64,000 nucleotides of DNA from Thiohalobacter sp. (GCA_026984835.1 JALSRI010000178.1:10430-74429); one strand, 5' to 3'; positions 11,517 to 43,192 are shown, counted from the first letter of the stretch. Notes: generated by a model not told the origin, from the sequence alone. Numbers and translations: made by a program.

Positions 11517-13404
11517 TCCCGCCGCCTTCGGTTTCCCTGACCACCTGCTGGACTTCCTCGCCATCGATGACTTCCTTCTCGCGCAGGCGGGCGGCCAGCG
11601 CGTCCAGGGTATTGCGCCGCGCAGTGAGGATCTCCCGCGCCCGCCGGTGGCCCTCATCGACCAGGGCGCGGACTTCCTCGTCGATCTGGCGCGCCGTCTC
11701 CTCGCTGTAGTTGCGTTCTTCCTGTTCCACGCCCAGGTACATGAGCTGCTGGTGCTTTCCGAAGGTCAGCGGGCCCAGCTTGTCGCTCATGCCGAGCCGG
11801 GTGACCATGGAGCGGGCGATTTCGGTGGCGCGTTCCAAGTCGTTGGAGGCGCCGCTGGAGACGTCGCCGTAGACGATCTCCTCGGCCACCCGGCCGCCCA
11901 GCAGGATGGCGATCTGGTCCTTGAGCTCGCTGACCGTGGACAGGAACTTCTCTTCCACCGGCAGTTGCAGGGTATAGCCCAGCGCCGCCACGCCGCGCGG
12001 GATGATGGAGACCTTGTGCACCGGTTCGCCGGTCGGCACCGTCACGGCCACCAGGGTATGGCCGGATTCATGGAAGGCCACGCGTTCCTTCTCTTCGTCG
12101 CCCAGACCCCGGTGTTTCTTCTCGGGACCGGCGATGACGCGGTCGATGGCGGCCTCGAAGTCGTCCATGGTGACGGCCTCGTGGTTCAGGCGCACGGCAT
12201 GGATGGCGGCCTCGTTGGCGATGTTGGCGAGGTCCGCGCCGACGAAGCCCGGCGTACGTTGCGCCACCACGCGCAGGTCGACGTCTTCGGCCAGCTTCAT
12301 GCCGCGGGTGTGGACCCTGAGGATGGCCTCGCGCGCCTCCAGGTCGGGCTTGTCGACCACGATCTGGCGGTCGAAGCGGCCGGCGCGCAGCAACGCCTTG
12401 TCGAGGATCTCGGGGCGGTTGGTGGCCGCCATCACCACCACGCCCACCGACGGGTCGAAGCCGTCCATTTCGGTGAGCAGCTGGTTCAGCGTCTGTTCGC
12501 GCTCGTCGTGCCCGCCCACCGGGGAGCCCATGCCCCGCGCGCCGCCGATGGCGTCCAGCTCGTCGATGAAAATGATGCAGGGAGCCTTCTGGCGCGCCTG
12601 CTCGAACAGGTCGCGGACCCGTGCCGCGCCCACGCCGACGAACATTTCGATGAACTCCGAGCCGCTGATGCTGAAGAAGGGTACCCGGGCCTCGCCGGCC
12701 ACCGCCCGCGCCAGCAGCGTCTTGCCGGTGCCGGGCGGGCCCATGAGCAGCACGCCCTTGGGCATGTGGCCGCCGAGACGCTGGATACGGGCCGGGTCCT
12801 TGAGGAAGGCGATGGTCTCGGCCAGTTCCTGCTTGGCCTCTTCGGCGCCGGCGACGTCGTCGAAGGTGACCTTGACGTCCTCCTCCGAATGGATGCGCAC
12901 CTTGTTGCCGATGTTGAGGAAGCTTCTGCCCATGCCGCCCATGCGCTGGGCCATCCAGCCCCACAACAGGAACAGCAGGCCGAAGGGCAGCACCCAGTTG
13001 AAGAAGAAATTGCTCAGCCAGTTGTCGCCCTGGCGCACGACGAACTTGACGCCATGCTTTTCCAGGTTCCTGGCCAGGTCGTTGTCCCACAGCGGAATGG
13101 TGACGAAGCGCCTGGGTTCCTGGGTGGCCGGGTCCTTGAGGGTCAGGGTGCCGGTGATGACTTTCCGGGTGACGACGGCCTCCGCCACCTCACCTTTCTC
13201 GACGTGTTCCAGGAACTCGCTGTAGGGGATCTCGGTCCGGCGCACCTCGCGGTAGCCCTGCCACAGGTAGAAGGACACCACCAGGAAGATGATGTACAGC
13301 CAGAGGGTGAAGTCGGGGCGCTGCCAGAACTTGCGTTCGGCCGGCTTGTTGATCTCGATTTCCGGTTTTTTGTTGCTGCCGACCTTGAAATGGCTCTTCT
13401 TCAT
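11497..13404 (-). CDS. ftsH: ATP-dependent zinc metalloprotease FtsH
   Basis: N-terminal TM pair, AAA+ Walker A GPPGTGKT, second region of homology, HESGH zinc site. Confidence 0.95.
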
Positions 13405-13461
13405 GGCGTCCTCGTCGGGTTGGCGTGCGTGCCGCAGTGGTCAGCGGACAGGATACACCGC

Positions 13462-13490
13462 ATAATGGTGCCCGACCCGGCGCGATTCAA
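13462..13490 (-). promoter_or_regulatory. sigma70-like promoter candidate for ftsH operon (TTGAAT-17-CATTAT)
   Basis: Read on the minus strand: -35 at 13490-13485, -10 at 13467-13462. ftsH ATG is at 13404. Confidence 0.3.
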
Positions 13491-13514
13491 GCCCGTTTCC
13501 CGCAAGGAGCCGTC

Positions 13515-13916
13515 ATGCTCGTTGGAATCCTGTTCATCTGGCTGGTCACGGCCTTCGGCCTGTGGATCGTCACCCTGGTGGTGCCCGGCGTCACGGCGCG
13601 TTCGACGGGCAGCCTGCTGCTGGCGGCGCTGGTGCTGGGCCTGGTCAACGCCTTCATCCGGCCGCTGCTCTGGTTGCTGACCCTGCCGCTCACGGTGCTG
13701 ACCTTCGGCCTGTTCGCGCTGGTCATCAATGCCTTCACCCTCTGGTTCACCGGCGCCGTGGTCAACGGCTTCGAGGTGCGCGATTTCGCTTCGGCGCTGC
13801 TGGCGGCGCTGGTCATGGCGCTGCTGGGCCTGGCCGGCTTCATCCTGCTGCAGTGGCTGATGATGGGCGAGGTGCACTGGATGTACATGACCGGCCGGCA
13901 AGGCGTCTACCTGTAG
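13515..13916 (+). CDS. DUF360 / phage holin 4_2 family membrane protein
   Basis: Four hydrophobic helices with FIRPLLWLLTLPLTVLTFGLF typical of the family. ATG 13515 preceded by AAGGAG. Confidence 0.6.
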   Translation: MLVGILFIWLVTAFGLWIVTLVVPGVTARSTGSLLLAALVLGLVNAFIRPLLWLLTLPLTVLTFGLFALVINAFTLWFTGAVVNGFEVRDFASALLAALVMALLGLAGFILLQWLMMGEVHWMYMTGRQGVYL

Positions 13917-13954
13917 GGGCTTTCCCTGCGAAGCTGCGGCGGTGGCCCGGACAT

Positions 13955-14737
13955 TCAGGCGCGGCCGCCGCCTGCGCGGGCATGGATCAGCACGTAGCGC
14001 AGGCCGAGCAGCACCAGGAAGAGGCCGAAGAAGGCCCGCAGCCGGGCCTCCGGCAGCGCCAGCGCCAGGTGGCTGCCGACGGCGGCGCCGGCCAGTGCAC
14101 CGATGGCCAGCGGCAGCACCAGCGGCCGGCAGACATTGCCCAGCCGCCAGTTCTCCCAGCTGCCGGCCAGCGTCGCCGGCAGCCGCGCGGCCAGCGAGCA
14201 GCCCTGGGCGAGTTGCTGCGGCATGCCCAGCCCCAGCACGAACAGCGGCGCCAGCACCGGTCCGCCGCTGATGCCGACAACGCCGGCGACCAGACCCTCG
14301 ACGATGCCCACCCCGACCAGGTAGGGTGCCGACCAGGGTTCCTGTATCACCCAGCCCGCCGGCAACTGTTCCCGGAAGATCACCAGCAGGCCGCCCACTG
14401 CCACCACGGCGCCGAATTCGCGCTTGAGCGTGTCCGGCGGCAGGCGTTCCGACCAGGCCGCCGCCAGCGGCGTGACGATCATCGACGGAATGGCCACCCA
14501 CAGTACCGTCCACAGGTCGACCTGGCCGCGCAAGCCGTAGACGGCCGTGCCGGTGGCGGCCGAGAAGACCGCCACCGTGATGGCCGTGCCGCGCGCCGCC
14601 AGCGGTGCCAGTCCGGCCCAGCCCATGAGCAGCGGGATCACCAGCGTACCGCCGCCGAGACTGACCAGGCCGCCGCCGAAGCCGGCGACGAAACCGATGC
14701 CGAGACCCTTGAGCCAGGACGGGCGTTGCGGTTGCAC
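13955..14737 (-). CDS. TauE/SafE family sulfite/anion exporter
   Basis: Gly-rich polytopic protein with a two-fold internal repeat (GGGLVSLGGG, GISGGPVLAP). GTG 14737 chosen, 7 nt after the glgP stop. Confidence 0.7.
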   Translation of the reverse strand: MQPQRPSWLKGLGIGFVAGFGGGLVSLGGGTLVIPLLMGWAGLAPLAARGTAITVAVFSAATGTAVYGLRGQVDLWTVLWVAIPSMIVTPLAAAWSERLPPDTLKREFGAVVAVGGLLVIFREQLPAGWVIQEPWSAPYLVGVGIVEGLVAGVVGISGGPVLAPLFVLGLGMPQQLAQGCSLAARLPATLAGSWENWRLGNVCRPLVLPLAIGALAGAAVGSHLALALPEARLRAFFGLFLVLLGLRYVLIHARAGGGRA

Positions 14738-14744: not shown

Positions 14745-17252
14745 TCAACGCTGCCAGAGAATGCGGTTGGCCTCCAGCGGCACACTGGCATGCGGGTGCG
14801 CCGGTACCACCCGCACCGTGTAGTCACGGGCCGGTCGCTGGGCGGGAATCAGGGCAGAGTAGCGGTAACCGTTCACCGCGCCGGCGAGTTCCTCCATGCG
14901 TTGCAGGGGATAGCGTTCCGGCATCGACTCCGCGTCGTGGGGGTCGGCATAGAGTTCCACGCGGACGCTGTCCGGATCCAGGTCATCGAGGTACAGCTGG
15001 ACCTCGACGCCGATCTTCAGATCGTCCTCCTCGATCACGACATTGCCGAAATGGAGGGCCGGCCAGTGCAACTCGATCTGGCGCTGCCAGTCACGGATGG
15101 CGCGGGCCAGGGCGGCGTCATCTGCCGAGCGCGCCTGCGCCGCGCGGGCCAGCGGCAGGTAGTGGGCTTCCGTGTATTCGCGCAGCATGCGGTTGGTGGA
15201 GAAGCGCGGCGTGAGCTCCGCCATGCTGCGGCGCATGTGTGCCACCCACTCCCGTGGTATGCCCTGGGCGTCGCGGTGGTAGAACAGCGGCACGATCTCC
15301 TGTTCCAGCAGCCGGTACAGGGCCTCTGCCTCTTTGGCGTCCCAGGCCGGGTCGGCGTCGTGTTCGCGGCCGTCGCCGAGGCGCCAGCCCAGCCCCGGCT
15401 GCCAGGCCTCGGCCCACCAGCCGTCCAGTTCGGACAGGTTCAGACCGCCGTTGACCAATACCTTCATGCCGCTGGTGCCGCAGGCCTCCCAGGGCCGGCG
15501 CGGGGTGTTGATCCAGACGTCGATGCCTTCCACCAGGTGACTGGCGGCGAGCAGATCGTAGTCCACCAGGAACACCGTGTGGCGTCCTAGGTCGTGGTCG
15601 CGGATGAAACTGAACCACTCACGGATCATGGCCTGGCCTTCGTGGTCCCGGGGGTGCGCCTTGCCGGCGATGACCAGTTGTACGGGTTGCTCGCTGCGCC
15701 TGAGCAGCGCCGCCAGCCGGGCCGGTTCGTGCAGCAGCAGGTTGGGTCGCTTGTAGGTGGCAAAGCGGCGCGCGAAGCCGAGGGTCAGGATGTTGGGATC
15801 GAGCAGGTCGCCCGGGCCACGGTTGGCCGGTTGTTGATAGTCCCTGCGGCGGCGCAGCCATTCGACGAGCCGCTGGCGGTTGCGGGTGCGCATTTCCCAC
15901 AGCTCGGCATCCGACACCCGGTAGATGGCGTCCTTCATTTCCTGCAGTTCGTCGCGCCAGCGGTCCTTGCTGCAGGCGGTCGTCCACAGGCGGTCCGACT
16001 CCACCGAGTCCCAGCTCGGCACGTGCACGCCGTTGGTGACGTGGCCGACCGGCACTTCAGCGTTCGGCCAGCGCGGAAACAGCGGTTCGAACAGCCGGCG
16101 GCTGACCTGGCCATGCAGGCGGCTCACGCCGTTGACGGCGGCGCTGCCGTGGATGGCCAGCCAGGCCATGTTGAAGGGCTCGTTCGCATCGTCCGGGTTG
16201 GCGCGGCCCAGGGCCAGCAACGCGTCCGGCGCCAGCCCGGCCCGTTCGCACCAGGGCGCCAGGTAGTGGCGCACCAGCCCGGGTGCGAAGCGATCGAAGC
16301 CGGCATCCACCGGCGTATGGGTGGTGAACAGGTTGCCGGCACGGGTCGCCACCAGGGCGGTGGCGAAATCCGTGTCCTGGCGTGCCTTGAAGGCGCGCGC
16401 CCGTTCCAGCACCGCGAAGGCGGCGTGGCCCTCGTTGAGATGGCAGGCCCCGGGCGTTGCCCCCAGCTGTTCCAGCAGTCGCCAGCCACCCACCCCCAGC
16501 ACCAGTTCCTGCTGCAGGCGCAGTTCCGGTCCGCCGCCATAGAGCTCGCTGGTGATGCCGCGGTCAGCGGCGTCGTTGAGCGGGTGGTTGCTGTCCAGCA
16601 GGTAAAGGCGGACCCGGCCCACCTGCACCTGCCAGACGCGCAGCAGCAGTTCGCGGCCGGGGAATTCGAGGCGGACGGTCAGCCATTCGCCGTCGGCGTT
16701 GCGCATCGGGGTCGCCGGCAGCAGGGTGGGGTCGTTGTAGGGGTAGAAGGCCAGCTGGTTGCCGTCGGCGTCCAGCGCCTGGCGAAAATAACCCTGCTGG
16801 TAGAGCAGGCCGATGGCCTGCAGCGGCACACCCAGTTCGGAGCAGGTCTTGAGATGATCGCCGGCCAGTACGCCAAGCCCGCCCGAGTACAGGGGCAGCG
16901 CCTCGCTGAGGCCATACTCCATGCAGAAATAGGCCACCGGCTCCAGTCCGCCGGCGCCGTACTTTTGTGAGAACCAGGTATCGCCGCCCAGGGCCGCCTT
17001 CTGTTCCTCGCGCAGTTCCCGCAACAGGGTGCGGAAGTCTGCATCGCCGGCCAGCGCCTGCAGCCGTCCCAGGCTGACCGTCTGCAGTATCAGCCAGGGA
17101 TTGCGGGTATGGCGCCACAGCGGTTCGTCGATGCGTCGCCACAGGGCATCGGCCACATGGCTCCAGGACCAGCGCAGGTCCAGCGCCAGCAGGCGCAGGT
17201 CTGCCAGTTCCTGCGGCAGGTCGGGGCGTGCTTCGTAGGGCATGTGATCCAT
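14745..17252 (-). CDS. glgP: alpha-glucan (glycogen/maltodextrin) phosphorylase, GT35
   Basis: 835 aa. PLP-lysine region EACGTSGMKVLVNGGLNLSELDGWW. Confidence 0.9.
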   Translation of the reverse strand: MDHMPYEARPDLPQELADLRLLALDLRWSWSHVADALWRRIDEPLWRHTRNPWLILQTVSLGRLQALAGDADFRTLLRELREEQKAALGGDTWFSQKYGAGGLEPVAYFCMEYGLSEALPLYSGGLGVLAGDHLKTCSELGVPLQAIGLLYQQGYFRQALDADGNQLAFYPYNDPTLLPATPMRNADGEWLTVRLEFPGRELLLRVWQVQVGRVRLYLLDSNHPLNDAADRGITSELYGGGPELRLQQELVLGVGGWRLLEQLGATPGACHLNEGHAAFAVLERARAFKARQDTDFATALVATRAGNLFTTHTPVDAGFDRFAPGLVRHYLAPWCERAGLAPDALLALGRANPDDANEPFNMAWLAIHGSAAVNGVSRLHGQVSRRLFEPLFPRWPNAEVPVGHVTNGVHVPSWDSVESDRLWTTACSKDRWRDELQEMKDAIYRVSDAELWEMRTRNRQRLVEWLRRRRDYQQPANRGPGDLLDPNILTLGFARRFATYKRPNLLLHEPARLAALLRRSEQPVQLVIAGKAHPRDHEGQAMIREWFSFIRDHDLGRHTVFLVDYDLLAASHLVEGIDVWINTPRRPWEACGTSGMKVLVNGGLNLSELDGWWAEAWQPGLGWRLGDGREHDADPAWDAKEAEALYRLLEQEIVPLFYHRDAQGIPREWVAHMRRSMAELTPRFSTNRMLREYTEAHYLPLARAAQARSADDAALARAIRDWQRQIELHWPALHFGNVVIEEDDLKIGVEVQLYLDDLDPDSVRVELYADPHDAESMPERYPLQRMEELAGAVNGYRYSALIPAQRPARDYTVRVVPAHPHASVPLEANRILWQR

Positions 17253-17255
17253 GGT

Positions 17256-19643
17256 TCAGTCCTGTCCGGTGTCCGGCTGCGACCACGTCCAGTCGCGGAT
17301 CTCCGGCATGTCCTCGCCGTGGGTGGTGATGTATTCGCGGTGTTCCACCAGCTTGTCGTGCAGGGCCTGGTGCAGGTGGCCGGCGCGGTCGCTGAGCGCC
17401 GGCACCCGGTCGGCCACGTCCATGACCAGGTGGAAGCGGTCCAGGTCGTTGCGCACCACCATGTCGAAGGGCGTGGTGGTGGTGCCTTCCTCCTTGTAGC
17501 CGCGCACGTGCAGGTGGTCGTGGAAGCGGCGCCGGTAGGTCAGCCGGTGGATCAGCCAGGGATAGCCGTGGAAGGCGAAGATGACCGGGATGTCGGTGCC
17601 GAACAGGGCGTCGAAATCGGCATCCGGCAGGCCGTGCGGGTGCTCCTCGTGCGGCTGCAGGGTCATGAGGTCGACCACGTTGACGACGCGGATGCGCAGT
17701 TCCGGTGCGAACGCGCGCAGCAGTTGCACCGCCGCCAGGGTCTCGATGGTGGGCACGTCGCCGCAGCAGGCCATGATCACGTCGGGCTTGCCGTCCTGGT
17801 CGTTGCTGGCCCATTCCCAGATGCCGATGCCGGCCGTGCAGTGCTTGATGGCGGCATCCATGTCCAGCCACTGTGGTTCCGGCTGCTTGCCGGCGACGAT
17901 GACGTTGACCAGGTTGCGCGACGCCAGGCACCGGTGGGTGACGTGCAGCAGGCAGTTGGCGTCCGGCGGCAGGTAGACGCGCACGATGTCGGCCTTCTTG
18001 TTGACCACGTGGTCAATGAAGCCCGGGTCCTGGTGCGAGAAGCCGTTGTGGTCCTGGCGCCAGACGTGCGAGGTGAGCAGGATGTTGAGCGAGGCGATGT
18101 CGGCGCGCCAGGGGATCTCGTTGCACACCTTGAGCCACTTGGCGTGCTGGTTGAACATGGAGTCCACGATATGGATGAAGGCCTCGTAGCAGGAGAACAG
18201 GCCGTGGCGGCCGGTCAGCAAATAGCCCTCCAGCCAGCCCTGGCAGGTGTGCTCGGACAGGATCTCCATGACGCGGCCGTCGGGTGCCAGGTGGTCGTCG
18301 TAGTCGTAGCGCTCGGCCAGCCAGGTCCGGTCGGTGACTTCCAGCAGGGCGCCGAGGCGGTTGGAGACGGTCTCGTCCGGCCCCATGATGCGGAAGTTGG
18401 CTGCTTCTTCATTCCGCTTCATGACGTCGCGCAGGTAGTCGCCCATGCGCCGCGTGGCCTCGCCCTGCGCAGCACCGGGCTGCTTCACTTCCAGTGCGTA
18501 GTCGCGGTAGTCGGGCAGGTGCAGCGGTTTCAGCAGCAGGCCGCCGTTGGCGTGCGGGTTGGCGCCCATGCGCCGTCTGCCCTGCGGCGCCAGCCCGGCG
18601 ATCTCCGGTTTGAGCCAGCCGCTGTTGTCGAACAGTTCCTCCGGCCTGTAGCTCTTCATCCAGTCTTCGAGAATCTTCAGGTGTTCGGGCCGGGTCACAT
18701 CCGGGATGGGCACCTGGTGGGCGCGCCAGTAGCCTTCCACTTTCAGGCCGTCGACCTCCCTGGGCCCGGTCCAGCCCTTGGGGGTGCGCAGGATGATCAT
18801 GGGCCAGCGCGGCAGGCGCACCTCGCCCCCCTCGCGCGCGCGCTGCTGGATGGCGCGGATGTCGGCCATCACCCGGTCGAAGACCGCCGCAAGCTGCTGG
18901 TGGACGGCCTCGGGTTCGTCGCCCGCCACCAGGTGCGGCTGATAGCCGTAGCCTTCGAACAGCCGGATCAGGTCGGCGGCGTCGATGCGCGCCAGTACCG
19001 TGGGATTGGCGATCTTGTAGCCGTTCAGGTGCAGCACCGGCAGCACGGCGCCATCGCGCGCCGGATCCAGGAACTTGTTGGAGTGCCAGGCGGTGGCCAG
19101 CGGCCCGGTCTCGGCCTCGCCGTCGCCGACCACGCACAGGGCGACCAGGTCCGGGTTGTCGAACACGGCGCCGAAGGCGTGGGCGATGGAATAGCCCAGC
19201 TCGCCGCCCTCGTGGATGGAGCCGGGCGTCTCCGGCGCGCAGTGGCTGGGCACCCCGCCGGGGAAGGAGAACTGCCGGAACAGCCGCTTCATGCCGGCCT
19301 CGTCGCGCGACACCTCCGGGTACAGCTCGCTGTAGGTGCCCTCCATCCAGGTGCTGGCCACCAGCGCCGGGCCGCCGTGGCCGGGCCCGGTGATGAAGAT
19401 GGCGTTGAGGTCGTCGCGCTTGATGATCCGGTTCATGTGCGCGTACAGCAGGTTCAGGCCGGGCGTGGTACCCCAGTGACCGAGGCGACGCGGCTTGATG
19501 TGTTCGGGCTTCAGCGGTTCCTTCAGCAGCGGGTTGTCCATGAGGAAGATCTGGCCGGCGGACAGGTAGTTGGCGGCGCGCCACCAGGCGTGCAATTGCC
19601 ATACCTCGTGCTCGTCGAGCGGGGTGTCTGGATTTCCGTTCAT
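17256..19643 (-). CDS. xfp: phosphoketolase (xylulose-5-P / fructose-6-P)
   Basis: 795 aa. N-terminus [11 protein letters not shown]...[11 protein letters not shown] and TPP-binding regions typical of Xfp. Confidence 0.95.
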
Positions 19644-22150
19644 TTCCTTTCTCCTTTTGCATCCTGGTTCTGAAGAGTTGTTGCCGGTGGAGGTGCCTTA
19701 TGCCAGGAGCTGTGCAGTGATTGCTTGAGGGTGTCCAGGAATCTGCGGTGCCGCGGGTTGTGGTGCTCAAGATGGCGGTACACATGCACCTTGACCAGGT
19801 CGGTGACGAAGGCCGAGGCCACCGAGTAGCCCCAGATCAGGGCAATCTCAGGCCAACTGATCGGCGTGATTAGGCCAAAGCCGTAGGCGGCCATCAGCGT
19901 GGCGGCCAGCTTGGTGACCACCGCAGACCAGACCATGACAGGTGCAGGCCAGGGCCGTTCCCAGAAGTGCCCCTTCGAGCGGGCGACGAACAGCACCAGG
20001 TGGCCCGCCACTGCCATCTTGAGAAAGACATAGGTCTGGACCTGGGGCGTGTCGAGTTGCAGCCAGTCCATGGCCAGCAGCAGCATGCCAAAGCTGCCGA
20101 TTATGCCCACCACGCCCATGGCGGTGGCCACGGTGATCACCTGTGACATGTTCCAGCGCACCGGCCGCGGGGACAGGCCGGTGTGGTCGTAGGCGATGGT
20201 CATGATGGGTACATCATTGAAGAAGGCCAGCAGGATGATCATGACCGCGGTGATGGGATAGAAGTCGAAGAACACCATGGCCAGGACCACGAAGAACATG
20301 ATGCGGATGGTCTCGCTGATACGGTAGATGGCATAGCTGTTCATGCGCACGAAGATGCGCCGCGCCTCCTCGATGGCGCCAATGATGACCGACAGTCCCG
20401 GTGCCGTCAGCACAAGGTCTGCCGCCGCACGGGCGGCGTCGGTGGCACCGCTGACTGCAATGCCCACGTCGGCCTGTTTCAGGGCTGGCGCATCGTTGAC
20501 ACCGTCACCGGTCATGCCGGTGATGTGGTCGCGGGCCTGCAGGATCCTGACAATGGCGAACTTGTGCTCGGGGAAGACTTCGGCAAAGCCGTCGGCCTGC
20601 TCCACCCGATCGGCCGTTGCCGGGTCTGCTGCGTTGCGATCTCCGATGGCAGGCAGCGCATCGGCGCGCAGGATGTTCGCGCCAAGCCCGAGGCGGCTGG
20701 CGATCTGCCGGGCGATGGCAAGGTTGTCGCCAGTCACCATTTTCACTCCGACACCGTAAGCCCGTGCCCGGCCGATGGTATCAGCCGAGTCCTCGCGCGG
20801 CGGGTCGAACAGCGACAGGATGCCGAGCAGGGTCCATTCCCCTCCAGCCGGCTTGCGCGCCACGGCCAGCGCACGGTAGCCCTGATCTGCGAAACGTTCC
20901 ACCACTTGTTGCGCGTGCTGGCGCTGACTGGCGTCCAGTCCGGTCATTTCGATGATGACCTGCGGTGCCCCCTTGGCCACCTGGAACCGTTGTCCGGAGC
21001 TGTCTTCCAGGGTGGCCTCGGTTCGCTTGCGCACCGGGTCGAAAGGGACGAACTCCAGTTGCCGGTAGTCATCCAGGCCGGTTTTGTTCTCCAGCCCTCT
21101 CAGCACCGCCTCGTCGATGGCATCCCGGTCTTCCTCGCGGGAGGCCAGTGCCGCCGCCAGCAGGACCTCCTGCTCGTCACTGGCCACGAAGCGCTCCACT
21201 TCGCCGAGGGTCAGCCGGTTCTGCGTCAGTGTGCCGGTCTTGTCCGAGCACAGGACATCCATGCTGGCCATTTCCTCGATTGATTCCAGGCGGGTGACGA
21301 TGGCCTTGAGCCGTGACAGCGCCACAGCACCCACGGCCATGGTCATGGACAGAACCGCCGGCATGGCGACCGGGATGGAAGCCACGGTCAGGATGAGGGC
21401 GAACTGGACCAGGTCCAGCCAGGGTGCATGGCGGTGCAGTTGTACCAGCAGCAGCAAGGTCACCAGGCCGAGGCTGACATAGATCAGGTAGTCTCCGATG
21501 GAGAGTACGGCGTTCTGAAAGTGTGATGCGGTATGGGCCTGCTGTACCAGGCCGGCGGTTTTCCCGAAGCGGGTGCGGGTGCCGGTAGCGGTCACCTCGG
21601 CCAGCACTTCGCCCTGTTTGACCACTGTGCCGGAGAAGGCGGTATCTCCGGCGCGTACGGTGACAGGCAGAGATTCGCCGGTCAGCGCCGACTGGTCGAC
21701 ACTGAGGTAGTCGCCACCGACCAGTCTGACATCGGCAGGAATCACATCACCGAGACGGATCCGGACGATATCGCCGGGCACCAGCTCCCGGGCATCGATT
21801 TCCTGCCAGAGACCGTCCCGCAATACCCGTGCCTTCAGGGCAAGTTGCTTCTTCAGCGCCTCGACCGCATTACCTGCGGTATACTCCTGCCAGAAACCGA
21901 CCAGAGCGTTGAATATCAGCAGGGCGGATATGATGCCGAGATCCGCCCAGTGTCGGGCCAGTGCCGACAGTACGGCGGCAATCTCGATCATCCAGGGAAT
22001 GGGGCCCCAGAAATAGCCCAGCAACTTGAGCAAGGGAGATATCTTTTGCTCTGCCAGGGCGTTGGGGCCGTATTGCTGCAGGCGTCGTTCGGCCTCGCGG
22101 GAATCCAGTCCCCGTGGTTGCTGCTGCGCTTGTATTGTCGCGTGGTTCAT
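19640..22150 (-). CDS. P-type ATPase, plasma-membrane proton-pump (type IIIA)-like, second copy
   Basis: [17 protein letters not shown]...[40 protein letters not shown]. 4-nt overlaps with ackA upstream and xfp downstream. Confidence 0.85.
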
Positions 22151-23358
22151 TCCTGTCTCCTGGTCTGTTCATCCCGCGGCCCGACACAGACGAGTGAATG
22201 GGTGTGTCGGGCCACGACGTGCTCCTCGTCGGTGGCAATGCGCAATACCGACACGCGGCTGTCCGGTGCGCCGATGCAGGTCGCGTTGCGGTTATTGGCG
22301 CCGGCGTCGATCATGATCCCCAGCCAGGCCGTCTGGTGGCAGATACGCTCGCGTATGGCCGGCGCGTTCTCGCCGATGCCAGCGGTGAACACCAGCGCGT
22401 CCAGGCCGCCCAGCGCGCCCGCCAGCGAGGCGATGGCACGGCTGGTGTGGTGCACGAAATAGTCCACGGCCCCGGCCGCCTCCGGGCGCGGGTTGCCCAG
22501 CAGTTCGCGCATGTCGCCGTTGCCGCCGGCCAGGCCGGCCAGGCCGCTGTGGTGGTTGAGCAGGTCGTCCACTTCGGTCACCGACAGGCCGGCCTCACGG
22601 ATGAGGTAGGTCACCACGCCCGGGTCGAGCTGGCCGGGGCGGGTGGCCATGGGCACGCCGTCCAGCGGCGTGAAGCCCATGGTGGTGGCGACGCTGCGGC
22701 CGTCGCGCAGCGCGCACAGGCTGGCGCCGTGGCCGAGGTGCGCGATGACGATCTTTCCCCCGGCCGCGGCGCCGAGATGCGCTGGCAGTACCGACGCGAT
22801 GTATTCGTAGGACAGGCCATGGAAGCCGTAGCGGCGGATGCCGCGGTCGAACCAGTGGCGGGGCAGGGCATAGCGCTGCTCGTTGGGCGGCATGCTGCAG
22901 TGGAAGGCGGTATCGAAGCAGGCCACCTGGGGCAGGTCGGGATTGAGCCTGCGCAGCGCCTCGATGGCGGCCAGGTTGTGCGGCATGTGCAGCGGCGCCA
23001 GCGGCACGAAGGCGCGCAGCGCGTCGAGTATGTCCGCGTCGATGCGCACCGGCCGGTCGAAGCGGTGGCCGCCGTGTACCACGCGGTGGCCGGCGGCGGC
23101 CAGCTCGCCGTAGTCGGCCTGTCGTCCGAGCCAGTCCAGCAGCCGGTCGAGGGCCCGTTCGTGGTCGGCGACCGCCGCGGGTTCGTCCAGCAGCGGCTTG
23201 CTGCCGGCGTCGAAGACCCGGAAGCGCGCCGCCGCGCCGAGACCCTGGAACCGGCCATGGCAGCGGCGCAGCGGTTCCCGCCCGCTTGTGCTGAACAAGG
23301 CGAACTTGAGGCTCGAGGAGCCGGCGTTGAGTACCAGAATGGAATCAGCCCGGGCCAC
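22147..23358 (-). CDS. ackA: acetate kinase
   Basis: ILVLNAGSSSLKF N-terminus; 403 aa ASKHA fold pattern. Confidence 0.9.
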   Translation of the reverse strand: MARADSILVLNAGSSSLKFALFSTSGREPLRRCHGRFQGLGAAARFRVFDAGSKPLLDEPAAVADHERALDRLLDWLGRQADYGELAAAGHRVVHGGHRFDRPVRIDADILDALRAFVPLAPLHMPHNLAAIEALRRLNPDLPQVACFDTAFHCSMPPNEQRYALPRHWFDRGIRRYGFHGLSYEYIASVLPAHLGAAAGGKIVIAHLGHGASLCALRDGRSVATTMGFTPLDGVPMATRPGQLDPGVVTYLIREAGLSVTEVDDLLNHHSGLAGLAGGNGDMRELLGNPRPEAAGAVDYFVHHTSRAIASLAGALGGLDALVFTAGIGENAPAIRERICHQTAWLGIMIDAGANNRNATCIGAPDSRVSVLRIATDEEHVVARHTHSLVCVGPRDEQTRRQE

Positions 23359-23365: not shown

Positions 23366-24766
23366 CTACAGCTCGAACACGTCGTTCAGGCCGGGCATGT
23401 GTACCCGGGTGTCCTGAAGGTGGCTGGCGAAATGCCGCATCACCTCTTCCTCGCCGTGTACCAGGATGCAGTGCTCGGGGCCGCCGGTCTGGCGGTACCA
23501 GGCCAGCAGTTCGTCGCGGTCGGCGTGCGCGGAAAAACCGCCTATGGTATAGAGGCGGGCCCGTACCGGAATGTCCTCGTGGAAGATCCGCACCTTGTCG
23601 GCGCCGTCGATGATGCGCCGCGCCAGGGTGCCGCGCGCCGCGTAGCCGACGAAGATGACGCTGGAATCATCGCGCCACAGGTTGTGGCGCAGGTGGTGGC
23701 GCACGCGGCCGCCGGTGCACATGCCGGAGCCGGCCATGATGACGGCACCGCCGCCGATGTTGTTCAGCGCGATGGACTGGGCGGTCTCGCGGGTGAAGTG
23801 CAGGCCCGGCAGCGAGAAGGGGTCGTTGCCTTCCCGGAACAGTTCGGCAGTCCGGGCGTCGTAGCATTCCGGGTGGCGCTCGAAGATCCGGGTGGCGGAG
23901 ATGGCCATGGGGGAATCCAGGAACACCTGCATGCTGGCCGGCAGCCGGCCCTGATCCACGCCTTCGTGCAGGAAGTAGAGGATCTCCTGGGCGCGTTCCA
24001 GGGCGAAAGTGGGGATGATCACGTTGCCGCCGCGGCGGAACGTGTCCTCGATGCCGCTGTAGAGTTCCTCGATGGAGGGCTTGAGCTGCTTGTGCAGGCG
24101 GTCGCCGTAGGTGGTCTCCATGACCACCACGTCGGCGTGCGGCGGCGTGGCCGGGTCGCGCAGCAGGGCGCGGCCGGAGTAGCCGAGGTCGCCCGAGAAC
24201 AGCACGCTGCGGCGACGGCCGCCTTCCTCCAGCTCCAGGAAGATACTGGCCGAGCCCAGGATGTGGCCGGCGTCGAGGAAGGTGGCGCGGATGCCGGGAG
24301 CGATCTCCAGCGGACTGCCGTAGACGGCGCTGCGGCCGAAGAACTCCATGCCGTTCAAGGCATCGAGCAGGTTGTACAGGGGGTCGACTTCCCGTTGCGG
24401 GTGGTGGTGGCCGTGTGCGCGCCGGGCCTTGCGCGACTGGTACTCGGCTTCTTCCTCCTGCAGGTGGGCAGCGTCGAGCATGACCAGGCGTGCCAGCTCG
24501 CGGCTGGCCGCGGTGGTGATGATTTCGCCCTGGAAGCCGCGTTTGGCCAGCAGCGGTATGCGGCCGCAGTGGTCGAGGTGGGCGTGGGTGAGCAGCAGGT
24601 AGTCGATGTCGGCCGGCTCGAAGCCGAAGGGTGCCGCGTTTTCCTCGGCCAGTTCGCGGCCGCCCTGATACAGGCCGCAGTCGATGAGGATACGCTTGCC
24701 ATTGCATTCCAGCAGGTGACAGGAGCCGGTGACTTCGTGGTCGGCGCCGTGGAAGGAGATTTTCAT
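23366..24766 (-). CDS. MBL-fold metallo-hydrolase with beta-CASP / RNA-specificity domain
   Basis: HAHLDHCG motif, then beta-CASP-type motifs and a C-terminal FSAHAD. ATG 24766 (MKISFHGA) chosen because the upstream extension is Arg/Ser-rich junk. Confidence 0.8.
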   Translation of the reverse strand: MKISFHGADHEVTGSCHLLECNGKRILIDCGLYQGGRELAEENAAPFGFEPADIDYLLLTHAHLDHCGRIPLLAKRGFQGEIITTAASRELARLVMLDAAHLQEEEAEYQSRKARRAHGHHHPQREVDPLYNLLDALNGMEFFGRSAVYGSPLEIAPGIRATFLDAGHILGSASIFLELEEGGRRRSVLFSGDLGYSGRALLRDPATPPHADVVVMETTYGDRLHKQLKPSIEELYSGIEDTFRRGGNVIIPTFALERAQEILYFLHEGVDQGRLPASMQVFLDSPMAISATRIFERHPECYDARTAELFREGNDPFSLPGLHFTRETAQSIALNNIGGGAVIMAGSGMCTGGRVRHHLRHNLWRDDSSVIFVGYAARGTLARRIIDGADKVRIFHEDIPVRARLYTIGGFSAHADRDELLAWYRQTGGPEHCILVHGEEEVMRHFASHLQDTRVHMPGLNDVFEL

Positions 24767-24794: not shown

Positions 24795-25757
24795 TCAATC
24801 GAACAGCGGGGTTCCGTTGGCCTGGTGCCAGCGCTGGATGCCTTCCCAGGCGTCCAGCGCCGATTCCGCGAACCAGAACAAGTCCCGGTCCTCGTCGTCG
24901 ATGACGCCTTCCGCGGCGAGGAAGTCAAAGTCGACGACGCGTCGCCAGTAGGCCTCGCCCATCAGCACCACCGGCAGTGGCTTTATCTTGCGTGTCTGAA
25001 TCAGTGTCAGCGTCTCGAACAACTCGTCCAGGGTTCCGTAGCCACCGGGGAAGGCGACCAGCGCACGGGCGCGCAGCAGGAAGTGCAGCTTGCGCAGGGC
25101 AAAGTAATGGAATCGGAAGCACAGCCCGGGGGTGAGATAGGGATTGGGAAACTGTTCGTGGGGCAGGGTGATGTTGAGGCCGATGGTCTTGGCGCCCGCT
25201 TCCCAGGCGCCGCGGTTGGCCGCTTCCATCATGCCGGGCCCTCCGCCGGTCATCAGCACCACGCGCGAATCCTGTGGGCCGCTGCCGCTGTCGCCCACCA
25301 GGCGGCCGAACTCCCGGGCGATGTCGTAGAAACGGCTCTTGTCGAGAATGCGCCGGGCGATATCCAACTGACGTTTGAGCGCGGCGTCGGCGGGGCTGGC
25401 CTGCAGCGCCCGTTCGAGTTCCTTTACCCTGCGGCGCGCCATGGCCGGTTCGTGAATGCGGGTGCCGCCGAACACGACGATGGTGTGGCGGATACTGTGC
25501 TGTTCCAGCAGCAGTTCCGGCTTGCTGTAGTCGAGTTGCAGGCGGACTCCGCGGGTGGCGCCCTGGCGCAGAAAGTCGATATCCGCGTCGGCTGGCCGGT
25601 AGGACGGGTTTTCCATGAGTGCCTGCACCCGGTCATGGGCGCCGGCATCGTCCTCGATTGCCTTGGGCGTCTGCCAGGGAAGCTTCTCGTGGCGTCGGAT
25701 CGGGTGGGGTGGCGGCGGTATCGACAGATCGTCCCGCGGTGGTGGCTGCTTGCTCAA
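24795..25757 (-). CDS. LOG / TIGR00730 family Rossmann protein (nucleotide 5'-monophosphate nucleosidase-like)
   Basis: GGGPGMMEAANRGA and PGGYGTLDELFE motifs. Candidate TTG start at 25757 overlaps the pta stop (TTGA); the alternative is ATG at 25616. Confidence 0.75.
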   Translation of the reverse strand: MSKQPPPRDDLSIPPPPHPIRRHEKLPWQTPKAIEDDAGAHDRVQALMENPSYRPADADIDFLRQGATRGVRLQLDYSKPELLLEQHSIRHTIVVFGGTRIHEPAMARRRVKELERALQASPADAALKRQLDIARRILDKSRFYDIAREFGRLVGDSGSGPQDSRVVLMTGGGPGMMEAANRGAWEAGAKTIGLNITLPHEQFPNPYLTPGLCFRFHYFALRKLHFLLRARALVAFPGGYGTLDELFETLTLIQTRKIKPLPVVLMGEAYWRRVVDFDFLAAEGVIDDEDRDLFWFAESALDAWEGIQRWHQANGTPLFD

Positions 25758-26707
25758 GCTCGTTCCTCCCCCTCGTGATGCATGATCACGGCCAGTGCCG
25801 CCGCAGCCAGCCGCGCGACCGGCGGGTCGGACCGTGAGGGTAGCATGATGGGAACCCGTGCGCCGACCACGATGCCGGCCAGGGTGGCGCCGGCCAGGTA
25901 CTCCAGGTCCTTGGCGAGGATGTTGGCGGCATTCAGGTCCGGCGCCAGCAGGATGTCCACGTCGCCGGACACCGGACTGTCGATGTGCTTGATGTGGGCC
26001 GCTTCCGCCGAAATGGCGTTGTCGAAGGCCAGCGGGCCGTCGACGACGGCGTGCAGGATCTGACCGCGCTCGGCCATCTTGCTCAGGCAGGCGGCGTCGA
26101 TGGTGGAGGCGATGGCGGGCTTGACTACCTCCACGGCGGACAGGGCGGCCACCTTGGGGCGTTCGACGCCCAGCAGGCGTGCCAAGTCGATGGCGTTGCG
26201 CAGGATGTCGGCCTTGATGGCCAGATCGGGGGCGATGTTGATGGCGGCGTCGGTGATGAACAGCAGCTTGTCGTAGCTCGGCAGTTCGGTCACGAACACG
26301 TGGCTGACCCGCTTGCCGGTCCGCAGTCCGGCCAGTACCGGATGCATCAGGGCGTCGGTGTGGATCCAGCCCTTGGCCAGCGCCGCGACTTCGCCGCGCT
26401 GAGCCAGTTCGACGCCCAGGCGCGCGGCTTCCTGCTCCGTATCGGCCGCGATCAGGCGCTGCGCGTCGAGGGAGCGCCCCAGCGTCCCACACAGGGCGCG
26501 GACGCGCCGAGGGTCGCCAATCAGTACCGGTTCCACCAGGCCGGCATCATGGGCCTCCATCATGCCCTGCAGGACGTGACTTTCCTCGGCGTTGACGACG
26601 GCGACGGGGATGGGGCCGTAGCGGCGGGCCCGCTCCAGGTAGGCCTGCAGCCGCGGGCAGGCCCGGGCAGCGGCCGGAGTGGCTGGTTCCCGTGGCGGAG
26701 CGGACAC
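25754..26707 (-). CDS. pta: phosphate acetyl/butyryl transferase family protein
   Basis: PTA_PTB-like sequence (ITDAAINIAP, DGPLAFDNA, LLAPDLNAANILAK). GTG 26707 lies 2 nt after the ppsA stop. Confidence 0.8.
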   Translation of the reverse strand: MSAPPREPATPAAARACPRLQAYLERARRYGPIPVAVVNAEESHVLQGMMEAHDAGLVEPVLIGDPRRVRALCGTLGRSLDAQRLIAADTEQEAARLGVELAQRGEVAALAKGWIHTDALMHPVLAGLRTGKRVSHVFVTELPSYDKLLFITDAAINIAPDLAIKADILRNAIDLARLLGVERPKVAALSAVEVVKPAIASTIDAACLSKMAERGQILHAVVDGPLAFDNAISAEAAHIKHIDSPVSGDVDILLAPDLNAANILAKDLEYLAGATLAGIVVGARVPIMLPSRSDPPVARLAAAALAVIMHHEGEERA

Positions 26708-26709: not shown

Positions 26710-29166
26710 TCAGGTGTCCCCGGGCCCTTGCTTCGCGGTCTGCAGGCGTGCTTCCGCCTCCACCACGCGGCGCAGGGTGGCAAGCACGGTGTCCGGATTG
26801 AGGCTGATGGAGTCGATACCGATACCGACCAGGTATTCCGCCACCTCGGGGTAGTCCGAGGGCGCCTGGCCACAGATGCCGCTGTGGCGCCGGTTGCGGC
26901 GGCAACCCTCGACTGCCCAGCGGATCATCTTCAACACACCGGGGTCGCGTTCGTCGTAGTCGAAGGCCAGGATCTCGCTGTCACGGTCCACGCCCAGGGT
27001 GAGCTGGGTGAGGTCGTTGGAACCGATGCTGAAGCCGTCGAACAGTTCACTGAATTCGTCGATCTCGACCACGTTGTTGGGTATCTCGCACATCACGTAG
27101 ATCTTCAGGCCATTGTCGCCGCGTACCAGGCCGTGTGCAGCCATGCTGTCGATGACCTTGCGACCCTCCGGTACGCGCCGGCAGAAGGGGATCATCAGGA
27201 TGATGTTGTCCATGCCGATCACTTCGCGGGCGCGCTTCATGGCGGCGCACTCGAGGGCGAAGCCGTCGGCATAGTCCGGATGCGTGTAGCGGGCCGCACC
27301 GCGGAAACCGATCATCGGGTTGTCCTCGACCGGTTCGAAGGTCTTGCCGCCCAGCAGGGTGGCGTACTCGTTGGTCTTGAAATCACTCATGCGCACCACG
27401 CATGGCCGTGGCCACACCGACGCGGCCAGGGTGGCCACCCCCTCGGAAAGGGTCTTGACGAAAAAATCGACCGGGTCGTCGTAGGCAGCGCTAAGGACGC
27501 CCAGCGCCTCGCGGGTCCGGGCATCGACGCGGTCCGGGTGCCTGAGTGCCATCGGGTGCGCCTTGATGTATTCATTGATGATGAATTCCATGCGCGCCAG
27601 GCCGATGCCGTCCACCGGCAGGGCGGCCAGGCTGAAGGCCTGGTCAGGGTCGCCGAGGTTCATCATGATCCTGGTCATCGGTCGCGGCAGCTCGCCGAGA
27701 TCGGTCTCCTCGATGTCGTAGTCGAGGATGCCTTCGTAGACCTTGCCGGTCTCGCCCTCGGCGCAGCTGACGGTGACCGGCTGACCGTCGCCAAGCACCC
27801 TGGTGGCGTCCTCGGCGCCCACCACGGCGGGAATGCCGAGCTCACGCGAGACGATAGCAGCGTGACAGGTGCGCCCGCCGCGGTTGGTGACGATGGCGGC
27901 AGCGGTCTTCATCACCGGCTCCCAGTCCGGGGTGGTGGTGTCGGCCACCAGCACCTCGCCGGGCCGGAAATCGGCGAGATGGCCGACGTCGGCGATGACG
28001 TGCACCTTGCCGGCGCCGATGCGGGTGCCGACGGCCCGGCCCTGGACCAGCACACGGGATCTCGCCTTGAGGTGATAGAGGCGCAGTATGCTGTCCTTCT
28101 TCTGGGACTCCACCGTCTCCGGGCGCGCCTGCACCATGTAGAGCTGGCCGTCGATGCCGTCCCTGGCCCATTCCATGTCCATGGGTTTGTGGAAACCGGC
28201 CTGGCGGGAATAGTGCTTCTCGATCTTGATGGCGTAGTCGGCCAGCACCATGACATCGTCGTCCGAAATGCAGAAACGCGCGCGTTCTGTGGGCGTGGTG
28301 TCGATATTGCGTGTGTACTCGACGGCGATGTTGTCCGTGTTGAGGGTGTCGGTGAACACCATTTTCTGCTCTTTGGCGCCGAGCCTGCGCTTGAGTACCG
28401 CCCGGCAGCCTTTCTCGAAGGTGGGCTTGTGCACGTAGAAGCTGTCCGGATCGATGGTGCCCTGGACCACGTTCTCGCCCAGCCCCAGCGCCGCGTTGAT
28501 GAACACCACGTCGCGGAAGCCGGTTTCGGTGTCCAGCGAGAACATGACGCCGCTGGCGCCCTGGTCGCTGCGGACCATCTTCATGACGACGACACACAGG
28601 TAGACCCTGTAGTAGTCGAATCGGTTGTCGTACTTGTAATGAATGGAGCGGTCGGTGAAATTGGAGGCCAGGCAGCGCTTGTAGGCGTCGAGCAGGGCGT
28701 CGTCTCCGCTGATGTGCAGGTAGGTATCGTTCTGGCCAGCGAACGAGGCTTCGGGCGAGTCTTCCGCTGTCGCCGAGGAACGCACCGCCAGTGACACGTC
28801 GTCGCCGTATTCCTGCCTGAGCCGCGCGTACTGGGCAAGGATGTCCGCTTTCAGATCGTCGGGCAGGGTGCAGCCATAGACGATCTCCCGGGCCCTGGCG
28901 CCGCGCGTCTGCAGGTCCCTGACATCGTCGGGATCGAGCCCGTCCAGTGCCTGGTGCAGCCTCGGCCAGGCCTCGTTGGCATCCAGCACATAACGGTAGG
29001 CCGCGGCGGTTACCGCGAATCCATTGGGAACGCGAACGCCTTCGCTGGTGAGATTGCGGTACATCTCCCCCAGGCTGGCGTTCTTGCCGCCCACCTCGGG
29101 GATGTCGTCGATACCGATTTCGCCGAACCAGCGAGTATAGGCTGGCCTGTCTTTTGTCGCTGCCAT
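26710..29166 (-). CDS. ppsA: phosphoenolpyruvate synthase (pyruvate, water dikinase)
   Basis: 818 aa. N-terminus GGKNASLGEM, phosphohistidine loop GGRTCHAAIVSRELGIPAVVG, C-terminal PEP-utilising domain. Confidence 0.95.
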   Translation of the reverse strand: MAATKDRPAYTRWFGEIGIDDIPEVGGKNASLGEMYRNLTSEGVRVPNGFAVTAAAYRYVLDANEAWPRLHQALDGLDPDDVRDLQTRGARAREIVYGCTLPDDLKADILAQYARLRQEYGDDVSLAVRSSATAEDSPEASFAGQNDTYLHISGDDALLDAYKRCLASNFTDRSIHYKYDNRFDYYRVYLCVVVMKMVRSDQGASGVMFSLDTETGFRDVVFINAALGLGENVVQGTIDPDSFYVHKPTFEKGCRAVLKRRLGAKEQKMVFTDTLNTDNIAVEYTRNIDTTPTERARFCISDDDVMVLADYAIKIEKHYSRQAGFHKPMDMEWARDGIDGQLYMVQARPETVESQKKDSILRLYHLKARSRVLVQGRAVGTRIGAGKVHVIADVGHLADFRPGEVLVADTTTPDWEPVMKTAAAIVTNRGGRTCHAAIVSRELGIPAVVGAEDATRVLGDGQPVTVSCAEGETGKVYEGILDYDIEETDLGELPRPMTRIMMNLGDPDQAFSLAALPVDGIGLARMEFIINEYIKAHPMALRHPDRVDARTREALGVLSAAYDDPVDFFVKTLSEGVATLAASVWPRPCVVRMSDFKTNEYATLLGGKTFEPVEDNPMIGFRGAARYTHPDYADGFALECAAMKRAREVIGMDNIILMIPFCRRVPEGRKVIDSMAAHGLVRGDNGLKIYVMCEIPNNVVEIDEFSELFDGFSIGSNDLTQLTLGVDRDSEILAFDYDERDPGVLKMIRWAVEGCRRNRRHSGICGQAPSDYPEVAEYLVGIGIDSISLNPDTVLATLRRVVEAEARLQTAKQGPGDT

Positions 29167-29225: not shown

Positions 29226-29266
29226 ATTCTAGCGCATACGCCGCCGCGTGCCTTGATGCGGATCAA
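29226..29266 (-). promoter_or_regulatory. FNR/CRP-family box (TTGATgcggATCAA, 29253-29266) plus -10-like TAGAAT (29231-29226) upstream of ppsA
   Basis: Perfect 14-bp palindrome. Its centre is about 40.5 bp upstream of the start site implied by the -10 hexamer. ppsA ATG is at 29166. Confidence 0.6.
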
Positions 29267-42485: not shown

Positions 42486-43192
42486 CGCCGGTATTTCTTG
42501 TGCAGGTCGCTCAGCATCTCCGCCTGCAGGGTCTGGATCTCCAGCAGCCGTGGCAGCTCGTGGTGCAGAATCTGGTCCAGCTTCTCGTCGATGATGCGAA
42601 TCTCGAGTTCGGCCTTCAGGTTGACCTGGTAGTCATTCTCGGCGCGCAGTCGGTCGCGCTCTTCCTGCCGGTTCTGGCTCATCATGATGACCGGCGCCTG
42701 CAGGGCGGCCAGCAGCGACAGCACCAGGTTGAGGAGGATATAGGGGTAGGGGTCGAACGGCGTTTTCAGGATGAGAAACGTATTGATGACGATCCACAAT
42801 GCGAGAAACAGGCTGAACGAGATGATGAAACTCCAGCTGCCGCCGAATTCCGCAACCTTGTCGGCGATGCGGTCACCCAGGCCGAGACTCTGCTCGTACT
42901 GCTCGTTGATGTTCTCCGACAGCAATTGCTCGTTCTGCAGGCTTTTCACCACCTCCTGTTCCAGCTCGTCGAGTTCGCCCAGATCCTTTTCCATCAACTG
43001 GCGTATGTAACGGGTGCGGAAGCGGTTCAGGCACGAAAAACAGATGCAGCCGTCCTCCGACCAGTCCGGCACCTCCTGGCGGATCATCGGCAGCAGGTCC
43101 TGGCGGACCAGTGCGGCCGACAGCATCTCGCGCCGCGGCTTGGTCTGGTGGCAGACCTGGCAGGTGCACGGGTTATGGCCGCGCCGGCTCAT
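42482..43192 (-). CDS. DUF1003 domain membrane protein with N-terminal Cys-rich segment
   Basis: GSWSFIISFSLFLALWIVIN...DPYPYILLNLVLS...QAPVIMMSQNRQ is the DUF1003 core. N-terminus has CTCQVC...CICFSC. Confidence 0.7.
   Translation of the reverse strand: MSRRGHNPCTCQVCHQTKPRREMLSAALVRQDLLPMIRQEVPDWSEDGCICFSCLNRFRTRYIRQLMEKDLGELDELEQEVVKSLQNEQLLSENINEQYEQSLGLGDRIADKVAEFGGSWSFIISFSLFLALWIVINTFLILKTPFDPYPYILLNLVLSLLAALQAPVIMMSQNRQEERDRLRAENDYQVNLKAELEIRIIDEKLDQILHHELPRLLEIQTLQAEMLSDLHKKYRR

Follow-up and report, generated by a model that had tools for sequence, protein, structure and literature searches.

We report a type IIIA (P3A) P-type ATPase gene (19640..22150, minus strand) in a DNA stretch of 64,000 nucleotides from Thiohalobacter sp. 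(GCA_026984835.1 JALSRI010000178.1:10430-74429). This whole stretch is called the window below, with positions counted from its first letter. The gene is the sixth of nine co-directional genes, ppsA-pta-LOG-betaCASP-ackA-P3A-xfp-glgP-tauE, and the run is preceded by an FNR-type palindrome. With a probability of roughly 0.6 we regard the protein as a functional P3A pump, likely with outward electrogenic H+ export, which would be co-transcribed from an FNR-type low-oxygen promoter together with enzymes leading from glycogen to ATP. The gene family is routinely annotated already, and the gene by itself is no surprise; the ATGA overlaps at its borders are ordinary as well. A moderate interest lies in the context, a compact, FNR-fronted glycogen-to-ATP-to-pump operon as one case of a recurrent mobile association.

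The open frame of the ATPase comprises 842 amino acids and continues for just six codons upstream of the ATG, for which reason the start of the 836-residue protein is unambiguous. The first-pass annotation of the window had proposed this minus-strand reading frame; it is real, and both protein motifs quoted there are found in the translation. In Pfam the protein possesses the domains Cation_ATPase_N, E1-E2_ATPase and HAD hydrolase. With the NCBIfam model TIGR01647 (“plasma-membrane proton-efflux P-type ATPase”) it reaches 991.8 bits across the whole model (positions 1-755), at a cut-off of 615.5. The second-best model, IIIB Mg (TIGR01524), reaches 385 bits and stays under its cut-off of 610.75, and the IIA, IIC, IID, IIIB and Kdp models all score far under theirs. 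Membership in a Mg2+, Ca2+, K+ or heavy-metal subfamily is ruled out by these hidden Markov model (HMM) scores; the earlier proposal had named a placement in the Mg2+, K+ or heavy-metal subclass as the result that would speak against it, and the ATPase falls in none of them.

Among proteins of solved structure the best relative is AHA2 (659 bits, E = 7e-197, query residues 12-788), followed by Pma1 with 597 bits for the Neurospora and 588 bits for the yeast protein (E between 1e-175 and 1e-178); the solved MgtA reaches 325 bits. One AHA2 alignment extends to AHA2 chain residue 828, and the hydropathy peaks fit a ten-helix membrane domain colinear with AHA2. From its sequence we regard the ATPase as a true bacterial homologue of the plasma-membrane proton pump of plants and fungi. 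The IIIA-like class assigned before therefore holds, with the TIGR01647 score and with AHA2 and Pma1 as best solved relatives; the resemblance to plant and fungal pumps is right as to the family, but this ATPase is part of a broad clade of prokaryotic P3A pumps that lack the plant and fungal regulatory termini. An AlphaFold2 model computed from an alignment of 20 sequences did not have the quality that a fold search or an analysis of site geometry needs and was left unused (mean predicted local distance difference test score 59.5, predicted template modelling score 0.35). Its helices fall at the expected places at low confidence. A structure model is not needed for the family call, because the sequence match to AHA2 suffices.

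The catalytic motifs are whole, with TGES at 157, D303 in DKTGT and GDGVNDAP at 548. According to Palmgren 2023 (PMC10654040) the residues N106, R655 and D684 of AHA2 represent the P3A proton acceptor and its controllers. They align with N81, R616 and D646 of the ATPase, of which N81 and D646 are invariant in all 74 homologues aligned and R616 is kept in 61 of the 74. The alignment of ion-site residues against AHA2 and Pma1 had been suggested earlier as a check; it pairs D646 with the Asp of transmembrane helix 6 (TM6) and the TM4 motif PVAMP (residues 260-264) with P-x-A-M-P. As P3B pumps do not have the TM5 Arg (PMC10654040), its presence in the ATPase favours H+. The caution that ion specificity is not readable from the sequence was right and can now be narrowed, since the conservation of all three AHA2 positions also favours H+, which we infer to be the transported ion. 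R610 aligns with R695 of Neurospora crassa Pma1. The TM5 stretch reads YRISETIR, with E613 in the place of an Ile in AHA2 and a Leu in Pma1, and the set E613/R616/N645 is common to 61 of the 74 bacterial and archaeal homologues.

In the remaining 13 of the 74 homologues this set is replaced by a co-varying M/(D or S)/D. These pumps have no TM5 Arg equivalent to AHA2 R655 and carry Asp-Asp in TM6; they are found at our loci L036, L037, L039, L045, L051-L053, L058, L065, L072, L074, L075 and L083 and include the copies of Acidithiobacillus, Igneacidithiobacillus and Acidihalobacter. Judged by these residues, the subgroup could differ in how the pKa is tuned or in the ion it carries. Eukaryotic regulatory termini were not found in the ATPase; its conserved core begins after 11-12 residues, and the chain ends about 48 residues past the last aligned position. 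The segment after TM10 (residues ~797-836, window ~19643-19762) is conserved in close homologues with the consensus YRHLxHRxPRHRxFLxxxxQPLH, and the low-confidence model places a helix at residues 800-815. This segment could represent a minimal regulatory or membrane-surface helix which replaces the eukaryotic R domain.

The operon starts with ppsA, encoding phosphoenolpyruvate synthase (26710..29166; NF005057 1104 bits, cut-off 598; Pfam PPDK_N, PEP-utilizers and PEP-utilizers_C). Like the ATPase gene, all its members lie on the minus strand. The second gene (25754..26707) encodes a phosphate acetyl/butyryl-transferase of pta/ptb-like type (NF006045 393 bits, cut-off 282) with a GTG start at 26707, 2 nucleotides past the ppsA stop. 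A LOG/TIGR00730-family Rossmann protein (“possible lysine decarboxylase”; 24795..25757) follows with a 4-nucleotide overlap to pta; it matches PF03641 and scores 88.7 bits with TIGR00730, slightly under the cut-off of 96. The next gene (23366..24766) encodes a beta-CASP metallo-beta-lactamase-fold RNase-like protein with Beta-Casp, RMMBL and Lactamase_B domains and matches from residue 1. The stop of ackA, the acetate/propionate kinase gene (22147..23358; PF00871 360 bits, TIGR00016 349 bits with a cut-off of 293), overlaps the ATPase start, and the start of the phosphoketolase gene xfp (17256..19643; NF003619 1474 bits, cut-off 962) overlaps the ATPase stop. An alpha-glucan phosphorylase gene of the DUF3417/TIGR02094 type, here glgP (14745..17252; TIGR02094 773 bits, cut-off 192), begins 3 nucleotides past xfp, and the last gene (13955..14737; PF01925 133 bits) encodes a TauE/SafE-family membrane protein. 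A TauE gene is also found 3' of the P3A gene at locus L109. From first to last the junctions measure 2, -4, 28, 7, -4, -4, 3 and 7 nucleotides, followed by a 550-nucleotide gap before ftsH. No convincing intrinsic terminator was found inside the nine-gene run.

Two further open reading frames on the minus strand were rejected. The one of 370 amino acids at 13401-14513 is spurious as an operon gene, since no family matches it and it overlaps the family-matched TauE gene, and the one of 565 amino acids at 24795-26492 arises when the LOG frame is extended too far, across pta. Both are probably artefacts of high G+C.

The 4-nucleotide overlaps described before on both sides of the ATPase gene are there, and both junctions read ATGA (start/stop). 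Both downstream genes have a canonical Shine-Dalgarno sequence of their own, which lies within the gene before: AGGAG, 6 nucleotides ahead of the ATPase ATG, and AAGGAG, 7 nucleotides ahead of the xfp ATG. The neighbours in the three-gene arrangement of ackA, ATPase and xfp were named correctly, but the ATPase gene is actually one cistron of a nine-gene operon fronted by an FNR box. Translational coupling, which had been concluded from the overlaps, is plausible but generic, the ATGA overlap being the commonest operon junction type. It is not kept in the closest relative, the metagenome contig L110, which has the identical order betaCASP-ackA-P3A-xfp and an ATPase 87% identical to that of the window, but a 62-nucleotide spacer before xfp. 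Between this contig and the window the ATPase (87%) and ackA (75%) proteins are less identical than beta-CASP (93%) and xfp (92%), which hints that the middle of the operon may have a different history from its flanks.

A hint towards the regulation of the operon arises from the region in front of ppsA. An FNR/Anr-type palindrome, TTGATGCGGATCAA (29253..29266), matches the consensus TTGAT-N4-ATCAA perfectly, lies 87-100 nucleotides upstream of the ppsA start and is the sole perfect match in the window. If one mismatch is allowed, four FNR-type sites occur in the window compared to 0.24 expected, and none of 100 shuffles reached four. The centre of the box is found 28.5 nucleotides upstream of a candidate -10 hexamer, TAGAAT, on the minus strand (29226..29231, by consensus match). 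This spacing is near class II geometry and fits a candidate FNR/Anr-activated promoter, as judged by consensus. The three one-mismatch sites are located at 617-630, 7708-7721 and 42783-42796. The second of these lies inside the 3' end of a CPA2 antiporter gene and about 130 nucleotides upstream of the start of a P2A-like ATPase gene, and it suggests that neighbouring ion-pump genes may share the regulon of the operon.

To find such pumps near fermentation genes is not peculiar to the window. At approximately 16 of the 80 best genome loci xfp, ackA, glgP, ppsA, LOG or betaCASP occurs within 6 kb of the P3A gene, in varied orders, and the linked contexts fall at no fewer than 13 separate places on the pump tree. 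In the evenly drawn sample of the phylum 6 of 14 loci with a pump of the operon-ATPase type have xfp, ackA, glgP, ppsA or pta within 9 kb, in orders such as xfp-ackA-glgP-P3A, glgP-P3A-ppsA and PPK2-P3A-xfp. With six single-copy genes and about 11 neighbours we estimated the chance of such adjacency at roughly 2%, and the linkage is far above this value. Within the same family genome G004 has xfp and a P3A gene of a different clade with a gap of 0 nucleotides, G011 has P3A next to ftsH, and in G016 and G019 P3A adjoins glgP. Contigs of Methylothermaceae and Sedimenticola carry close homologues 3' of ppsA-DUF308, with a Crp/Fnr-type gene and YfdX nearby; the Sedimenticola contig additionally contains enolase and a gene of the phosphoglycerate-mutase family. 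On plasmid p1 of Burkholderia thailandensis (L111, NZ_CP068711.1, 32344-58767) the order is ftsH-ackA-P3A, with pta and PPK2 nearby. A published link of a P3A pump to phosphoketolase and acetate kinase was not found in the open-access literature.

Some of these loci deserve a short description. The G004 locus L104 (G004:C1:565000-584900; same family, different genus) contains a sugar porter of the major facilitator superfamily, ackA, a copper-type P1B ATPase, an unknown gene, xfp, P3A, another unknown gene and a CPA1 Na+/H+ antiporter; its pump, of a different P3A clade, is 55% identical, and the xfp-P3A gap is the one of 0 nucleotides mentioned above. A second G004 copy (L106: ackA, truncated xfp, P3A) has two in-frame TGA codons and looks decayed. 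The plasmid locus L111 also carries a copper ATPase, with a group II intron gene and an IS3 transposase gene interspersed, and resembles an lxa-type low-oxygen locus.

For the occurrence of P3A pumps we applied the TIGR01647 cut-off to 401 evenly drawn genomes of the phylum. It is passed by 19 of them (~5%), mostly from one family, and by none of 12 bacterial control genomes; two archaeal controls, the methanogens M. jannaschii and M. acetivorans, pass. The description of the subclass as uncommon in bacteria is thus roughly right. A homologue is carried by 11 of 41 close relatives. In absolute numbers at least 8000 proteins match the ATPase at E <= 1e-100, many of which are already named “plasma-membrane proton-efflux P-type ATPase”, and there are at least 600 homologous stretches in species-representative genomes from many phyla. 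A 2023 review places prokaryotic P3A pumps mainly in methanogens, with their transport function undetermined (PMC10654040); bacterial P3A pumps are far more widespread than this wording implies. The pump tree mixes phyla and domains and does not follow taxonomy, the best genome matches come from a betaproteobacterial metagenome-assembled genome and from Desulfobulbaceae (76-77% identity), and 13 plasmid-borne P3A copies with 50-58% identity were found. Taken together with the low G+C content at third codon positions (GC3) of the ATPase gene, this indicates horizontal spread. The closest homologues belong to sediment, vent and methanotroph lineages, not to acidophiles.

Past the 550-nucleotide gap a second run follows with ftsH (11497-13404), a P3A paralogue, a CPA2 (Na+/H+-exchanger-family) antiporter (7563-8816), a P2A-like ATPase (4886-7582; best match of PMR1/SERCA type, under the cut-off) and PPK2 (4025-4864). 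The paralogue in this ftsH operon (8913..11657, minus strand) reaches 896 bits with TIGR01647, split over two stretches, and shares 50% identity with the ATPase of the nine-gene operon. It has the same proton-site residues, an N-terminal extension of about 60 residues and an insertion after model position 501. Three P-type ATPases thus lie inside 18 kb of the window, and in genomes of the family of the host the type of the paralogue is commoner than that of the operon ATPase. The host genome (2.87 Mb, 259 contigs) contains two genes for the RuBisCO large subunit, the glycogen synthase gene glgA and six Crp/Fnr-family genes, and narG has no match in it. From this gene content the host looks like a glycogen-storing autotroph without sign of NarG-type nitrate reductase.

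The following sequence of events would connect the genes of the operon. Upon loss of oxygen an FNR-type activator would turn the operon on. Alpha-glucan phosphorylase would then free glucose-1-phosphate from stored glycogen, which we infer to be the substrate, phosphoketolase would split fructose-6-phosphate or xylulose-5-phosphate to give acetyl-phosphate, and acetate kinase would convert acetyl-phosphate to ATP without respiration or net redox cost. These roles of glucan phosphorylase, phosphoketolase and acetate kinase represent the established biochemistry of their families. The P3A pump would most likely spend part of the fermentation ATP on expelling protons by the mechanism of AHA2 and Pma1, in a cycle in which D303 would be phosphorylated and D646 would hand off the proton under the control of R616 and N81. 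This could have the effect of keeping up the membrane potential and a non-acid cytoplasm, countering the acidification by acetate when respiration stops. By our own reasoning a pump moving 1 H+/ATP would be able to sustain a high potential even when ATP/ADP is low, which a reversed F1Fo ATPase (3-5 H+/ATP) could not, and we propose that a dedicated pump may be carried for this reason.

Several observations weigh against this proposal. No transport assay stands behind any prokaryotic P3A pump (PMC10654040), and the TM5 residue E613, which is absent from AHA2 and Pma1, could alter stoichiometry or ion choice. The FNR site is known by its match to the consensus only, and the six Crp/Fnr-family genes that the genome possesses all lie elsewhere, with none near the operon on its contig. 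About 80% of the 80 best P3A loci have no partner gene within 6 kb. The GC3 of the ATPase gene (0.778) is the lowest of the operon, in which the other genes range from 0.82 to 0.93. This low value and the absence of the 4-nucleotide ATPase/xfp overlap in the nearest relative, contig L110, mean that the insertion may be recent and the coupling incidental.

The last two points could be carried further to the view that the ATPase gene came to stand between ackA and xfp by chance, in a recent horizontal insertion, and that the function of the pump has nothing to do with its neighbours. Other membrane-protein genes near the ATPase gene have a GC3 of 0.89-0.90; the tree which does not track taxonomy, the best matches in a betaproteobacterial metagenome-assembled genome and in Desulfobulbaceae at 76-77% and the different xfp junction in L110 point in the same direction. 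We nevertheless hold an accident to be very improbable, as the same small gene set is linked in different orders and in distant pump clades, far above the estimate of about 2%, and as the ATPase frame is intact and has a good Shine-Dalgarno sequence. It is also rather unlikely, in our judgement, that the pump is a general device for acid stress and pH homeostasis which came to its place by co-transfer. Such a role is assumed in Acidithiobacillus, and the open-access literature on bacterial “proton-efflux P-type ATPase” genes treats them mainly as presumed pH-homeostasis genes of acidophiles, chiefly of this genus. Acidophile genomes occur among those with ATPase homologues, Acidiphilium carries plasmid-borne copies, and acetate fermentation makes an acid load, so that a role in pH and a role in energy overlap. 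The FNR-type site and the gene set, however, indicate that the signal is oxygen rather than pH. Sediment, vent and methanotroph lineages are the source of the closest homologues, and most of the acidophile copies are found in the M/D/D subgroup or in other clades than the operon ATPase.

A different question is raised by the ion itself, given that the transport function of prokaryotic P3A pumps is described as undetermined (PMC10654040). The pump might move or counter-transport another cation (H+/K+ or Na+) and serve ion homeostasis beside the CPA2 antiporter and the P2A ATPase, which we consider unlikely. Cation antiporters occur near P3A genes in the window and in G004, and the exchange of E/R/N for M/(D or S)/D in 13 of the 74 homologues marks the site as evolutionarily tunable. 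The extra TM5 carboxylate E613, shared by 61 of the 74 prokaryotic homologues and missing in AHA2 and Pma1, falls, by our own alignment, at the position of Ser775 in the Na,K-ATPase, and we counted this in favor of another cation. Yet the complete Asn/Arg/Asp proton triad is kept, the TM4 motif PVAMP has no acidic residue at what is presumably the position of the SERCA ion-site carboxylate Glu309, and the scores with the IIA, IIC, IID, IIIB and Kdp models are far under the cut-offs. H+ export from ATP won out of stored glycogen is the reading we prefer.

In a broader and more tentative version of this reading, which we consider somewhat less likely than not, bacterial P3A pumps might be the dedicated output of a horizontally mobile, Crp/Fnr-controlled survival module, in which storage polymers (glycogen, perhaps polyphosphate via PPK2) yield acetyl-phosphate and ATP without respiration and a pump of 1 H+/ATP holds the potential even where the phosphorylation potential would not suffice for an F1Fo ATPase running in reverse. 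If this is true, the pump of the plant and fungal plasma membrane would originally have served to energise membranes in cells that do not respire. In plants and fungi every cell is energised by proton pumps of the P3A type. The function of their prokaryotic relatives is treated as an open question in the 2023 review (PMC10654040), and the locus described here joins such a pump to enzymes making ATP from stored sugar without oxygen, in one tight operon behind a promoter of low-oxygen type. The recurrence across distant bacteria and plasmids makes the bacterial P3A role experimentally addressable.

Compared with the known P3A pumps, the ATPase agrees with AHA2 of Arabidopsis thaliana (PDB 5KSD) in being colinear from the N-terminal helix to TM10 and in sharing DKTGT, TGES, GDGVNDAP and the TM4 motif P-x-A-M-P. 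It differs from AHA2 by the missing C-terminal R domain (~100 residues) and the short N-terminus, by the addition of R610, as in fungal Pma1, and of E613 (Ile in AHA2) in TM5, and by being bacterial and operon-encoded. With Pma1 (N. crassa 1MHS/7NY1; S. cerevisiae 7VH5) it has in common the P3A fold, the pair R610 and N. crassa R695, and D646, which aligns with the TM6 Asp of N. crassa Pma1, numbered Asp-730 by Palmgren 2023 (PMC10654040). In contrast to Pma1 it has neither the N-terminal extension (about 85 residues) nor the C-terminal tail of the fungal protein, and possesses the plant-type R616 where Pma1 has His. The archaeal P3A pumps (e.g. M. jannaschii MJ1226, cited in PMC10654040) are likewise prokaryotic and without regulatory termini, and the archaeal homologues aligned share TM5 YRI-x-ET-x-R and TM6 ND-x-P with the ATPase, but they form a different clade on the tree. 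Among the 80 best loci the archaeal ones have no phosphoketolase or ackA linkage, and ppsA with a weak glgP match occurs in one Methanoculleus locus only. MgtA, a P3B Mg2+-ATPase of the sister subfamily, has the TM6 Asp in common with the ATPase and differs by the absence of the TM5 Arg (PMC10654040).

As to gene content, the closest comparison is with low-oxygen loci. We take the lxa locus of Burkholderia cenocepacia to range from BCAM0275a to 0323, with BCAM0309 numbered inside it. The locus contains genes for acetate kinase, a phosphate acetyl/butyryl-transferase, a “lysine decarboxylase”, a metal-dependent RNase, a cation-transporting ATPase and Anr-like regulators (PMC3721108). The FtsH encoded by BCAM0309 is listed as micro-oxically induced in B. 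cenocepacia H111, a strain which according to the same paper has no lxa locus (PMC3759415). In Pseudomonas aeruginosa the genes induced by Anr or low oxygen include PA3613 (phosphoketolase), PA3614 (metallo-beta-lactamase-fold protein) and PA1429 (P-type ATPase) (PMC8575079). In the window this lxa-like content is matched by ackA, pta/ptb, the LOG-type protein, the beta-CASP RNase and the cation P-type ATPase, with FtsH nearby; the lxa ATPase BCAM0318 and PA1429 are likened to the window ATPase by their description as P-type or cation ATPases and not by P3A subtype. The window genes differ from these systems in being packed in one short operon behind one FNR-type site, together with glycogen phosphorylase and ppsA.

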